Positions 1,321-35,228 of a stretch of 64,000 bases of DNA are shown here, in pieces. The notes under the pieces are model-generated. The model saw nothing but the letters and a program-made list of their open reading frames with translations, searched no databases and was not told where the DNA came from. How positions within the stretch are numbered: the stretch's first letter is position 1; each line of letters begins with the position of its first letter. Source of the stretch: Eledone cirrhosa (lineage: Eukaryota); assembly GCA_964016885.1 (NCBI GenBank), contig OZ024742.1, forward strand, positions 242,048,001 to 242,112,000, written 5' to 3'. The translations under genes were made by a program, and so were the position numbers.

Positions 1321-2772
1321 CCACTCTGGAATAGAACATCCGAAGCAATCTCATGGTTCCAAGAACTGCCTGACAAACACAACACCCGTTTCCTGCAATT
1401 TCTGAGTCCCTGCTGAAGGATGCAATTGCTTTCGCAAGAAACCTAACCACCATAACCGACGCCGAGCAGGATGTGATCCTCCATGCACGTAAGACCTTTT
1501 TGTACCATAACAAGTCCTACTGGACAACAAATCGGAGACTCCCTTCGATGTCAGCATGGGTGCTAGTGACTTGGCTGAGATTAATGATCTGGTGGGCCTG
1601 TTTATCTTTAACCGGATGAAAACCCTCTTCACAGGCCTTACAGTGGATTACACCGAGATGACGGCCTCTTTGTTCTGCATAAAATTAACCCCAGGACTAC
1701 CGATGGGTTTCGGAAAAACCTTAACGCTTTCTTCAATAACCTGGGCCTAAGAATAACTATAGATTCGAGTTTAACTAAAGCCAACTTCTTAGATGTAACT
1801 CTCGATTTAGAAACCTCCCTTTATTATCCGTACCACAAAAGTAACGAATCCCTTAGATATATAGACGTTAACTCGAATCACCCCAAGAACATCACAGATA
1901 ATTTAGTTAAAAGTGTCTCCCTTAGGATCTCTGGCCTCTCCGCCAATGAGGATATCACTAGGGCCGTGGCCCCCTATTACAACGAACCCCTAGCCCGTAG
2001 CGGTTTTAAAGATAAGATCTCTTATCTCAGAATAGCCCAACGCCCACCCAGGAGGAATAGGAAGAGACAAATTAGCTGGTACAACCACCCGCGCCCCAAT
2101 CAACTGCGAGGTATCTACACCTATAGCAAACAATTTCTTTACTCTATTGCACAAACCCTTCCCCACCCAACATAGGTACTAGACCATCTTTAATAAGAAT
2201 ACAATCAGACTCTTTTACTCCACTACACGAAATCTAGCTAGGAACTTAGACAATATTAATATTACTAAGTTAAATAAGTCTACTACCTCCGAAACCCATC
2301 CCGGCACTGAGGTTCTGTGCAACTGCCCCTTCATCAATAAATGCCTTACAAAGATATTGTATACAAATGTGATGTCATCTCAGGCCCTGATGAAGAGCGA
2401 AAGACGTATATCGGGATGACCTCCAACAACTTTAAGGCCCGTTGGTACGCACATACCCATTCTTTTCGATGTCCGGACAAGTCCAACCATAGAAAACTCG
2501 CCGCCCATGTCTGGGACCTAAAAAGGAACTCCACCCCCTTTACGCTCAAATGGAAACTACTCTAGAGATCGCGGTCTTACACAGGAGGCCATAATTGTTG
2601 TGACCTTTGTATTTTCGAGAGTTACGAAATACTATTTCCCAAAGGACCCTTACTCAATAGACTCTCAGAATATTGACCGAATTGCATGCACAAAAACTAT
2701 GCAACTTACAAGTCATATAGACCAGTTCCTCCCCTGAACGATGATCCCATAAGACAACGGAATCGACATTAA
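1321..2772 (+). pseudogene. Disrupted PLE reverse transcriptase plus C-terminal GIY-YIG endonuclease
   Basis: Across frameshifts and stops: FDVSMGASDLAEINDLVGLF, GLHRDDGL (1645-1668), NFLDVTLDL, YIDVNSNHP, RNRKRQISWYNHP, IVYKCDV...TYIGMTSNNFKARWYAH, CDLCIFE...LLNR. The motif style matches Naiad-type PLE proteins. Confidence 0.88.
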
Positions 2773-6203: not shown

Positions 6204-6391
6204 GTAGATAAATCTACCAAGAGTTTACGGTAGTGTCCAATCCGTATGAAGAACTCAATGTATTCCGGATATCATGGAAAGAAGAGATGTAATGAAAATC
6301 CACTTTCGGTGAAAGATAAACGGTATACAGAGTCAAGATAAAATATTAAACAAATAATGAATAAACAATTCCTTATATTAAACAAAAAAAG

Positions 6392-6546
6392 TTCATTATT
6401 TAACGATCGTTTCTAGGGTATATATGTGTTATAATTGGTATGCATATTCAACAGATCTATGTACAAAATTATACAAAATTATACAAATTATCAAGATTAA
6501 ATATACATACCTAACACATATATACGCCGTCTTCAGAAATAATGAA
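6392..6546 (-). ncRNA. Mirror copy of the long-stem-II hammerhead
   Basis: Reverse complement of 8121-8275. Confidence 0.75.
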
Positions 6547-7204
6547 GTATATTTATTGATAATAACAACAATTCAAAATATCAGTTCAAAATTGACCAAT
6601 GAAAACACAAAGGGTTAAAAGCAGTTCGGTGTGTGTATATACATGTAAAATCCTTACACATATTTTACAAAAATGTGTGTATAATTTGTATACGCATACT
6701 AAAAAGATGGATGCAAACACAAAATTTCAAGGTTAATATCTCTGTAAGCTTAAATGCGCTGATAAGATGCGCATTGATACTTATGGAGTCAAGCATATAA
6801 ATATATTTTTTCATACTCACACATATCAGTATAATCACACATACATGCGCGTATATGCATAAATATACACATAACCACGAACATACAAACACACATACAC
6901 CCCCACTCACATTTATATATGTGGATATAAAATCATAAGCACATAGAAATTAAATCACTCACATAAAACACTGGCACACACATTTCAAGATCAAGATACA
7001 GAAATTAGGTGGGAGGGGGGGGAAGGGTCAGTATTCAATTGTCTGAGCAGACTGCCTAATATAAATGTATCTATAAATTAAGAAAAATAAAAAAATATAT
7101 ATATATATACACACACACACGCGCAACACATACACACATACACATATATATAAAAAAAATAGATAATAAAGATATATATCCATATATATATATATACACA
7201 CACC

Positions 7205-7252
<48 letters not shown>

Positions 7253-8120
7253 TATACATATACATACACATACATCTAAATATACATACACATACATACA
7301 CACATACATGTACATACATGTACATACACATACGCACATCGATATACATATATATATATACATATATATACATATATATATACACTCACATAGACATATA
7401 GATACATACACACACAACTTACATACACACGTATATATATATAAATAGATGTACCTTCATACATAGAATTAGATATATAATCATACATACATATGCACCT
7501 ACTTATACTCATATATATAAATACATACGCTTCCATGTATGTGTATATACATAAAAAACAATACAACCTCACCAAACTCAGACATACAAATAAAAATAAT
7601 AATAAAAAGGCATATGTATATACATACACACACGCATTAATAGAGATATATATATATACATATTTCTGTATCTTGATCTTGAAATGTGTGTGCCAGTGTT
7701 TTATGTGAGTGATTTAATTTCTATGTGCTTATGATTTTATATCCACATATATAAATGTGAGTGGGGGTGTATGTGTGTTTGTATGTTCGTGGTTATGTGT
7801 ATATTTATGCATATACGCGCATGTATGTGTGATTATACTGATATGTGTGAGTATGAAAAAATATATTTATATGCTTGACTCCATAAGTATCAATGCGCAT
7901 CTTATCAGCGCATTTAAGCTTACAGAGATATTAACCTTGAAATTTTGTGTTTGCATCCATCTTTTTAGTATGCGTATACAAATTATACACACATTTTTGT
8001 AAAATATGTGTAAGGATTTTACATGTATATACACACACCGAACTGCTTTTAACCCTTTGTGTTTTCATTGGTCAATTTTGAACTGATATTTTGAATTGTT
8101 GTTATTATCAATAAATATAC

Positions 8121-8275
8121 TTCATTATTTCTGAAGACGGCGTATATATGTGTTAGGTATGTATATTTAATCTTGATAATTTGTATAATTTTGTATAATT
8201 TTGTACATAGATCTGTTGAATATGCATACCAATTATAACACATATATACCCTAGAAACGATCGTTAAATAATGAA
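8121..8275 (+). ncRNA. Type I hammerhead with a greatly extended stem II
   Basis: TTCATTATTT-CTGAAGA-[~116 nt, GTATATATGTGTTA...TAACACATATATAC pairing]-GAAA-CGATCG-TT-AAATAATGAA. 10-bp stem I, GUU triplet. Confidence 0.75.
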
Positions 8276-8326
8276 CTTTTTTTGTTTAATATAAGGAATT
8301 GTTTATTCATTATTTGTTTAATATTT

Positions 8327-8374
<48 letters not shown>

Positions 8375-9009: not shown

Positions 9010-9147
9010 AATATCACCCAGAGAAGCATATATAAGTATATTTGAAACGGCAGGAGCTCAACCGTTGGGGTCCCAACTCCTTCATATAACCTCATCCTAC
9101 TACCCCAAGTGTCGATTACTCCGGTGAGTAATGGTCTAACTGGTTTT
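9010..9147 (+). mobile_element. Diverged relative of the hairpin family retaining a decayed full hammerhead layout
   Basis: GAAACGGCAGGAGCTCAACCGTTGGGGTC...CTACTACCCCAAGT...TAATGGTCTAACTGGTT resembles the right half of 9247/25136/34996, but the upstream sequence is not a fold-back. Confidence 0.5.
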
Positions 9148-9246: not shown

Positions 9247-9442
9247 ATGGGAAAATGTTCAAGACCCCGACGGCAGAGCTCAAGCCATTTCGACGCCTAT
9301 TTCTGGACAAAAATAGCCGTCGAAACGGCTTGAGCTCTGCCGTAGGTGTCTTGAACATTTTCCTATTACCGACTCTACTACCCTAAGTATTGAGTACGCT
9401 GGTGCGGTGCGTTATGGTCCACCTGTTTCCCTACCACACTTC

Positions 9443-9447
<5 letters not shown>
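9247..9447 (+). mobile_element. Hairpin-plus-tail element, copy 1
   Basis: ~120-bp imperfect palindrome 9247-9366 plus ~80-bp tail, in (TA)n. Confidence 0.85.
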
Positions 9448-11206: not shown

Positions 11207-11369
11207 ATACTTTGGGAGGGTCACCTTGTGAATAAGAAACACACGCGCAAGTTGCTTTCACTCCAATTTATTATAAATTAAAAAAAATTCTTCTTCTTCG
11301 TAAAAAATTCTTATAAGTTTCCGGTTGGTTGGTTGGTTGGTTCCGCAACCGGACGGTTGTTCATATATT

Positions 11370-11412
11370 GTCAAAGTTCTTTCGTCACATATTCTATGAC
11401 TTCTTCAGTGAC
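11370..11412 (-). ncRNA. Minimal type I hammerhead in the PLE 3' pLTR
   Basis: Minus strand: GTCA-CTGAAGA-aGTCAtagaatatgTGAC-GAAA-GaaC-TT-TGAC. The partner at 12504-12546 has GAAA mutated to TAAA. Confidence 0.7.
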
Positions 11413-11595
11413 CGGGGAATCTTTTCTTTGTTTTTTGCCTCTCCTTTGTTCTGTCCTACGCCATCTTGTTTTTGTGTGTTTTGTGTGCTTAGTTTGCGGG
11501 TGTCTGTGTGTGTTTTTATTTGTTTATTTATTTGTTTATTTACATGTTACTGGTTGGTTGTTTGTCCTATGTGTGTGTGTGTTTTCATTTTGTCC

Positions 11596-20733: not shown

Positions 20734-20766
<33 letters not shown>

Positions 20767-20810
20767 GGCGAAACATAAGTCATAATCATGAACTCATAAT
20801 CCTTTATTTA

Positions 20811-20864
20811 CTGTTATATATATTTCGATGATAGACATTGAATGGCTATGACCTCATCAGGCAG
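20811..20864 (-). ncRNA. Type I hammerhead motif
   Basis: Minus strand: CTGc-CTGATGA-ggtcATAGcCATtcaATGtCTATcatc-GAAA-TATATA-TA-aCAG. Confidence 0.65.
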
Positions 20865-20938
20865 TTAGTCAGTTCTTAGATATGCCAGCTCTGTGTTTAT
20901 GGTGTTGATGGTATCAGAGCCTTGGGACACACACACAC

Positions 20939-24041: not shown

Positions 24042-24493
24042 AAAGTTTTATTTAAAATTGTTGGGTTACAACGAGTAAATATTTTATAACTGATATAAAA
24101 GCACTCAACAGTTTACGATATTAAACAAATGGAGTAGGTTTACGATATTAAACAAATGGAAACTATATTTATAAAACCATATTTATTTCGTTATATATAT
24201 TTCTGGGATATCATATTAAAAATATGGTATGCCTTCCACAGACAAAATACAATACATAAGCTGTTTTATAAATAATTTTGACATACCTTATAATAATGCA
24301 ACTTCCATTTAAAAAATCAATTTTTTAAATGGAAGTTGCATTATTATAAGGTATGTCAAAATTATTTATAAAACAGCTTATGTATTGTATTTTGTCTGTG
24401 GAAGGCATACCATATTTTTAATATGATATCCCAGAAATATATATAACGAAATAAATATGGTTTTATAAATATAGTTTCCATTTGTTTAATATC

Positions 24494-24496
<3 letters not shown>
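24040..24496 (-). mobile_element. Family A copy forming a 356-bp palindrome (24141-24496) plus tail
   Basis: Symmetric about 24318/24319 with a 2-nt centre. Hammerhead layout at 24389-24452 with core CTGTGGA in both arms. Confidence 0.88.
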
Positions 24497-25040: not shown

Positions 25041-25342
<302 letters not shown>

Positions 25343-34931: not shown

Positions 34932-34995
<64 letters not shown>

Positions 34996-35000
<5 letters not shown>

Positions 35001-35187
35001 AGTAAGTAAGACCCCGACGGCTGAGCTCAAGCCGTTTCGACGGCTAATTCTGTACAGAATTAGCCGTCGAAACGGCTTGAGCTCAGCCGTCGGGGTCTTA
35101 CTTACTCCTATTACCCACTCTACTACCCTAAGTATTGAGTACTTTGGTGCGTTATGGTCCACCTGGTTCCTTACCACTTTCCCCTCG

Positions 35188-35188
<1 letters not shown>
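34996..35188 (+). mobile_element. Hairpin-plus-tail element, copy 3
   Basis: Perfect 116-bp palindrome 34996-35111 plus 77-bp tail, in (TA)n. Confidence 0.88.

Positions 35189-35228
<40 letters not shown>

Follow-up and report, generated by a model that had tools for sequence, protein, structure and literature searches.

The palindromic hairpins found in a 64,000-nucleotide stretch of Eledone cirrhosa DNA, referred to here as the window, are fragments of the terminal repeat (pLTR) of a Penelope-like retrotransposon, assigned to the Hydra clade by its motifs, that have been set head to head. Each hairpin was probably made from two separate target-primed cDNAs that ran off the 5' end of the RNA and were joined head to head in a (TA)n target. 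Full-length natural copies of the parent occur elsewhere in the genome with a period of 3813 bases (a 3.8-kb unit), and their pLTRs contain the hammerhead ribozyme with an intact 5' half that had been postulated as the source of the hairpins.

Three palindromic copies had been described from the sequence alone, at 9247, 25136 and 34996, and all three are present, with mirror symmetry in 53/60 pairs (9247-9366), 57/64 pairs (25136-25264) and 58/58 pairs (34996-35111); all are embedded in (TA)n runs. Positions in the pLTR are numbered here from the A of a YAGT motif in hammerhead loop II (+1). In the 34996 copy, a (TA)n target without assigned strand (34934..34998) is followed by a short arm on the minus strand (34999..35055), which corresponds to parent pLTR +2 to ~+58 and stops at the parent's short 3' end, and by a long arm on the plus strand (35052..35188), which corresponds to +2 to ~+134 and abuts the right (TA)n flank (35189..35225, likewise unstranded). 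The junction common to both arms is a self-complementary GTAC without strand (35052..35055; +2 to +5 in the alignment to the natural parent L092), which would lie one base inside the predicted transcription start. Aligned from +2 to its long end, the long arm differs from L092 at a single place, within a terminal T/C run. Between the two 3' ends lies a tail of ~75 bases (35112..35188, plus strand), whose sequence in the parent continues towards the start of the open reading frame (ORF) at +231.

The right arm had been recognized as the 3' half of a hammerhead, from GAAA at 35069 through stem III and GUC to GGGGU, and this reading holds. On the plus strand, the half ribozyme (35058..35096) comprises the 3' strand of stem II (35058-35068), GAAA (35069-35072), stem III with a palindromic loop, a GUC with a predicted cut after 35091, and the 3' strand of stem I (35092-35096). 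The window copies carry only this 3' half, mirrored, and not both halves of a type I hammerhead core, and an Rfam scan of the window gave no hammerhead, only microRNA-like matches below the gathering score among the matches listed (150 of 263). Folded as DNA, the hairpin scores z -18.5, and none of 200 shuffles was equally stable. The second copy (25139..25341, plus strand) belongs to an older subfamily, its short arm extending to 0 and its long arm to -5; the third (9249..9445, plus strand) is decayed, its short arm reaches +2 and its long arm begins inside the short arm. Three of the mirrored variable segments by which the copies were said to differ read as quoted, and in the 9247 copy the right-arm counterpart of CTATTTC has decayed to AAAATAG. 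A fourth sequence, at 9042..9147 (plus strand), is a single 5'-truncated arm of an older subfamily that begins at ~+17, is 75% identical to the 34996 copy and has neither mirror nor 5' half. The decayed, non-mirrored 5' half once ascribed to 9010-9147 is absent: in none of 39 other best-scored copies did the match to this segment start before query base 22, and in 37 it started no earlier than base 36 (window 9040 on), so that 9010-9041, whose bases these copies do not have in common, is best read as flank.

Other inverted repeats also lie in the window. An AT-rich palindrome of 356 bases with perfect arms of 173 bases (24141-24496) sits between TA runs, has 19 matches in a 1.19-Mb genome sample and is possibly another head-to-head product or a MITE. 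Two inverted arms of 682 bases (6324-7005 and 7662-8343), 99% complementary and 656 bases apart, look like a long head-to-head insert of another family, since arm and spacer belong to one dispersed repeat (L113, L167).

No conserved parent emerged among 30 of the 38 matches to CUGANGA upstream of the core, most of which were mirrored copies or joins to other families. The route to the parent was instead a copy with a read-through junction (L010), which led to long elements. Among these, L092 is a natural full copy with a unit length of 3813 and an ORF from +231 that encodes 738 residues. Penelope-like elements are the sister group of telomerase. As judged by motif, the single 738-residue ORF of L092 encodes a reverse transcriptase (RT) followed by a C-terminal GIY-YIG-type endonuclease, with RLRWR, DKT, FIQFD, YRDD, a CxCx5C linker, VIYQC and YIGLT, then CxxC and CxH; the CCHH cysteine pair between VIYQC and YIGLT is absent. 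The parent also has the pLTRs, partial tandems, inverted 5' copies and optional tail of a Penelope-like element. Its protein conforms to the published motif definition of the Hydra clade (PMC8557442), with RWR replacing RWK, and each of the clade's motifs is present in 113-118 of 120 homologues. These motifs, together with comparison by eye to reference proteins, place the parent putatively in that clade and, again by eye, suggest a family distinct from Hydra-1_Obim. In all, 1898 homologues were found, almost all unnamed; a Pfam search with the parent protein gave no family and a PDB sequence search no match under E 0.1. Hydra-clade elements insert into (TA)n (PMC8557442), and here TA runs occur on both flanks in 24/27 unselected pairs. 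The window itself contains, at 1324-2724 (plus strand), a decayed and frameshifted ORF of another Hydra-type Penelope-like family, pieces of which are 41-54% identical to the parent protein.

Alignment of 13 natural pLTRs gives a hammerhead with stem I, UUGANAA, a long bulged stem II, a loop II of 36 columns, GAAA, stem III and GUC. The missing half had been expected to read CUGANGA, the canonical C3-G8 core; the parental 5' half is actually UUGANAA, found in 12/13 aligned parents with all four bases at position 7, and corresponds to the U3-A8 variant reported in Schistosoma Penelope-like elements (PMC4209133). In the three stems of this type I fold, 90% of 260 cells are paired and covariation is seen, with 4/20 pairs changing on both sides, three of them in stem II, in changes contributed by two related sequences. 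Three of four parental hammerheads fold weakly as monomers (z -0.1 to -1.4), the other scoring -3.8. The parent pLTR is predicted to be cleaved after GUC, at +41; few long arms start there, and we saw no clear pile-up of arm ends at +42, where ribozyme-cut ends would fall. The 'stem II hairpin' that had been placed at the centre of the palindromes is created by the mirror, the parental partner strand of stem II lying ~30-37 bases upstream of the centre.

The outer ends of the arms lie at ~+60 or ~+134 in the parent, each at a TA step, and the same two 3' ends terminate the complete parent units (n = 14; eight short, six long). One short and one long arm make up 27/30 unselected head-to-head pairs, as well as 76/81 pairs from loci picked by the tail alone, which is a biased set. 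To map the inner ends we used the 85 of 103 pairs with a good fit to a parent; 18 were dropped for identity below 0.88, inserts longer than 21 bases or want of a close parent. The centres are not scattered at random: the inner ends cluster at the YAGT of loop II, with 67/170 at -2 to +2, the mode at +1 (33 ends, followed by 12 at +2 and 9 at +3) and none of the 170 upstream of -6. YAGT is kept in 13/13 aligned parents and the remainder of loop II varies. In contigs of four sequencing runs, read-derived depth drops ~100-fold across +1, although the runs may come from the assembled sample and thus not be independent of it; strand-changing joints are almost wanting in the same contigs, as expected of collapsed contigs.

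At this wall, arms often carry an additional base. Counting arms that reach +1 and whose preceding base is neither parental nor part of the other arm, we found that this base is G in 13/18 unambiguous cases (p 9e-4 against one third; control 26/121), and in 9/14 (p 0.017) after removal of four cases explicable by a rare parent variant. The parental base before +1 is G in 2/44 pLTRs, both from one element. In full-length L1 copies, an additional G at the 5' end stems from the cap (PMC11702581). By eye, a TATA-like word stands at ~-30 in most parents, though not in the two most diverged; further upstream of it are what we take to be CCAAT and CC(A/T)6GG boxes, also by eye. Motif, wall and extra G together suggest that +1 is a capped transcription start. 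The Penelope promoter has been located in the pLTR (PMC2377424), where TATA-like and Inr-like motifs have been noted (PMC3846280). Several copies (L010, L062, L063, L064, L065, L070 and L084) continue beyond the tail in the direction of the ORF before returning to near +1, so that short partial tandems result; these are template jumps near the same 5' wall.

The family is abundant. Of 543 candidates in the 3.0-Gb genome, at least 40 match the 34996 copy at 99% identity. An unselected sample of 119 evenly spaced 10-kb stretches (1.19 Mb) contains 51 family loci, with 27 short-plus-long pairs; extrapolated from 1.19 Mb, the genome would hold ~128,000 loci and ~68,000-70,000 pairs. Among 30 near-identical copies, the parental A at +1 is kept on the long arm in three (L010, L022, L026) and on the short arm in two (L024, L025), the two forms being mirror images, in contrast to L013-type copies.

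The co-variation of arms that had been noted in the window extends beyond it. Measured over +19 to the short end in 21 unselected pairs, arms are more alike to their own partner than to arms of other copies (identity 0.93 vs 0.83), and 0/10000 permutations gave a value as high; this comparison of left-right with between-copy identity had been proposed as a check, and it bears out the co-variation. The variable segment agrees between arms in 71/78 pairs, as against a third of cross pairs, and the seven pairs in disagreement look like decay or parsing failures. In only 33/78 does no other arm match better than the own partner, so that the signal is one of subfamily, and no clear subfamily hybrid, with arms from different subfamilies, was found among the 78 pairs. 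Arms decay independently after insertion, with 96 asymmetric differences in 56 elements; private mirrored variants number three in the same 56, too few to demonstrate either a shared template or later homogenization.

We consider it likely, then, that every hairpin records two priming events at one target. The endonuclease would nick both strands of (TA)n, and one target end would prime at +60 and the opposite one at +134; the template would usually be a single RNA, or else RNAs from one source copy, whereby both arms inherit the same variants. Each cDNA would halt at or shortly before +1, sometimes adding C opposite the cap, and a template jump or microhomology-mediated end joining would then link the two cDNA 3' ends. 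That the hairpins lack the UUGANAA half would follow from its position upstream of the transcription start: RNA initiated at +1 would open with half a ribozyme, the whole one being confined to read-through transcripts. The short/long pairing recurs in long inverted elements, whose junctions are scattered, as read-through RNA would lead one to expect. A Penelope-like protein, predicted to form a dimer, has been shown in vitro to cut both strands and extend them, with starts at two internal sites on either side of the tail and with uncleaved RNA as template (PMC11167929). A more comprehensive version of the model strikes us as somewhat less than an even bet. In it, an RT dimer would use both nicked (TA)n strands as primers on a single capped transcript, at two fixed sites close to its 5' end, and join the run-off cDNAs head to head; with the promoter inside loop II, RNA started there would have half a ribozyme, and a whole one would occur in read-through RNA alone; and the palindromes, in their tens of thousands, would be fossil products in which the start site, the cap and a general route for all Penelope inverted ends are recorded.

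Inserts that combine two families bear on the number of strands involved. Family Y is a different element with a canonical hammerhead core (880 candidates), and it forms palindromes of its own, centred at CAGTT, 110-150 bases upstream of its intact hammerhead (L136 and L209, from the unselected set). In five inserts (L031, L037, L047, L051 and L110:7523), between TA runs or flanks, a family Y arm is joined head to head with a Penelope-pLTR arm, a product that a single folded strand cannot make. Four of the five came from a search selected by the CUGANGA motif, and none was found among 19 unpaired arms; such hybrids are therefore rare and could be deletions between neighbouring palindromes. The window contains the hammerhead-bearing end of a family Y relative, 68% identical, at 20744-20865 (minus strand). 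At ~11260-11500 (minus strand) a further repeat family has its end, which bears a minimal hammerhead-like motif and a canonical CUGAAGA core near 11408; this family has 28 matches in the 1.19-Mb sample, several as opposite-strand pairs. In L041 and L053, Penelope-pLTR arms meet the 11408-type family within its hammerhead, at a common short sequence.

The main rival retains a single strand: a run-off cDNA or an antisense RNA would fold back near +1 and prime itself, and the endonuclease would then cut the arms at +60 and +134 before integration. Self-priming, there from an antisense RNA, is the published hypothesis for head-to-head repeats and inverted ends of Penelope (Arkhipova et al. 2013, PMC3846280). 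It would explain both the co-variation and the lack of subfamily hybrids in 78 pairs, and the above-chance microhomology at junctions (two or more bases in 23/50 insert-free junctions, vs 14% for blunt joins) suits self-priming as well as end joining; 35/85 junctions carry inserts. A fold-back copy can hold nothing that its template lacks, so that with the tailed strand as template no inner bases unique to the short arm are expected, yet the tail-less short arm has at least two such bases in 39/85 pairs and at least ten in 23. The tailed long arm has the unique bases in 18/85 and the arms are about equal in 28/85, and these 46/85 are also compatible with fold-back. The excess of short-unique over long-unique pairs is partly ascertainment, being 26 vs 18 of 72 (p 0.29) when both ends lie within +30 and 10 vs 4 of 18 in the unselected set. 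The requirement of containment would fall away with trimming, and arms that break it can be mimicked by later deletion, inversion or other rearrangement of palindromes. More difficult for a folded strand are the 22/85 centres with a spacer of at most two bases (25 were listed, three being false owing to the loop III palindrome), which leave no more than that for a loop. Both arms reach +2 or further in 17/85, and in L304 a G precedes +1 on both. Arms without any overlap (L071 and L263), like the two-family hybrids, cannot come from one folded strand, and an antisense template leaves the wall and the extra G at +1 unexplained. We therefore regard self-priming with trimming as unlikely. The sequence-only reading had gone further and made stem II of the ribozyme the hairpin that primes fold-back synthesis of the left arm. 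Centres do lie within ~20 bases of the 3' strand of stem II, and arms do co-vary; however, the visible hairpin arises from the mirroring and has no counterpart in the parent. Had the real stem II been the primer, the centre would still contain the 36-base loop II, which 0/103 pairs retain, none reaching -20, and family Y palindromes centre far from their intact hammerhead. This mechanism appears scarcely credible.

The symmetry might instead be inherited from a few founders, with the 190-base palindrome moving as a ready-made unit in the manner of a non-autonomous MITE-like or SINE-like element. The at least 40 copies, among 543 candidates, that are 99% identical to the 34996 copy speak for this, as does an identical perfect centre in 25/30 copies examined, but that search was selected by the centre itself. 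Among nine same-subfamily pairs gathered without using the centre, one shares the 34996 centre and all other junctions differ, so that a recurrent join at the self-complementary GTAC, which beside +1 would repeatedly give the same product, is more likely than a moving unit. Read-through of a unit, moreover, would not renew the junction. We judge such a unit improbable, and identity as a MITE in the strict sense, a non-autonomous DNA transposon, was rejected in view of the 75-base unmirrored tail at one end, junctions that vary between copies and a parent that encodes RT. A further alternative leaves the two cDNAs unchanged and concerns the wall, which would be a splice acceptor or a ribozyme-processed end in place of a transcription start. 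Most parents have a pyrimidine tract and YAG before +3, and the Drosophila Penelope intron ends at its hammerhead (PMC4209133). Against splicing, arms retain the A and G of the AG (the ends at +1, +2 and +3 given above) and no common upstream exon is joined at the wall; against ribozyme processing, the predicted cut lies at +41, where few long arms start. Either origin of the wall seems very improbable, and two run-off cDNAs joined at a transcription start remain our preferred account.

Inverted 5' pLTRs, one-sided tails, pLTR hammerheads, U3-A8 cores and TA targeting are already described. Among C-terminal EN+ Penelope-like elements, the Hydra clade (Craig et al. 2021, PMC8557442), which includes Hydra-1_Obim, resembles the parent in RW(K/R), DKT, the CxCx5C linker, the lack of the GIY-YIG cysteine pair, the C-terminal CxxC and CxH, (TA)n targets and a pLTR hammerhead. 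Its members are generally shorter than 3 kb, as against the 3.8-kb unit here, and the supplementary row for Hydra-1_Obim gives a CUGAAGA core and an 8-base loop, in contrast to the U3-A8 core and 36-base loop II of the parent. The inverted 5'-truncated pLTRs of Penelope, Naiad and Adineta vaga (PMC8557442, legend to fig. 2; PMC3846280) share the head-to-head copy, the tail on one arm and the TATA-like and Inr-like motifs. They differ in that here the smallest form (~190 bases) dominates, with some 70,000 copies extrapolated; the tail is ~75 bases and not 30-40; the centre is fixed at an Inr-like site and accompanied by an extra G; and two cDNAs fit the data better than the self-priming proposed there.

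In its biochemistry, the Anolis Poseidon element PAc, studied in vitro (Frangieh et al. 2024, PMC11167929), is a close parallel, with two internal RT starts that bound the tail, cutting and extension of both strands, an AT-rich target and an uncleaved RNA template. PAc belongs to another clade, and inverted products and a start inside the ribozyme are not treated in the parts of that paper drawn on here. L1 twin priming (PMC11702581) likewise has a second target end priming a second cDNA, joining by microhomology and a cap-derived G. There, the second primer falls at variable internal sites and the arms do not overlap, whereas here the sites do not vary and the two cDNAs usually extend to a common 5' end, which yields a palindrome. 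The minimal hammerheads of Schistosoma Cercyon elements (Cervera and de la Pena 2014, PMC4209133) have the same U3-A8 core, palindromic loop III and long bulged stem II, and opposite-strand motif pairs were noted there; the present family is set apart by a 4-bp stem III, a large loop II with a predicted start site and the presence of the 3' half only in most copies.

Non-LTR retrozymes (10.64898/2026.07.22.740005) are also short non-coding derivatives of Penelope-like pLTRs. They are arranged head to tail with a complete hammerhead in each unit, unlike the hairpins, which are head to head and without the 5' half, and the hairpins are accordingly not retrozymes. One tandem array of the hairpin family was found, L088 (G000:C3 near 214146200-214148300), a head-to-tail array with a 273-base unit (~-20 to +253) and an inverted arm at one end; it too is without the hammerhead 5' half. 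In the open literature, with subscription papers, Repbase and Dfam outside its scope, our search found no account of start-site-pinned centres in a ribozyme loop, cap G at junctions, strict short-plus-long pairing or two-family hybrids.

The origin of the tandem and inverted ends of Penelope-like elements has been named as unresolved (PMC8557442). For this question, the hairpin family supplies tens of thousands of minimal products with countable junctions, and the counts favour two primed cDNAs joined at the 5' end of the RNA. The model explains a very abundant palindromic repeat that could be mistaken for a MITE or a microRNA hairpin, and it predicts a capped start at one base inside a ribozyme loop, priming at +60 and +134 and, when RNAs are mixed, products that combine them.
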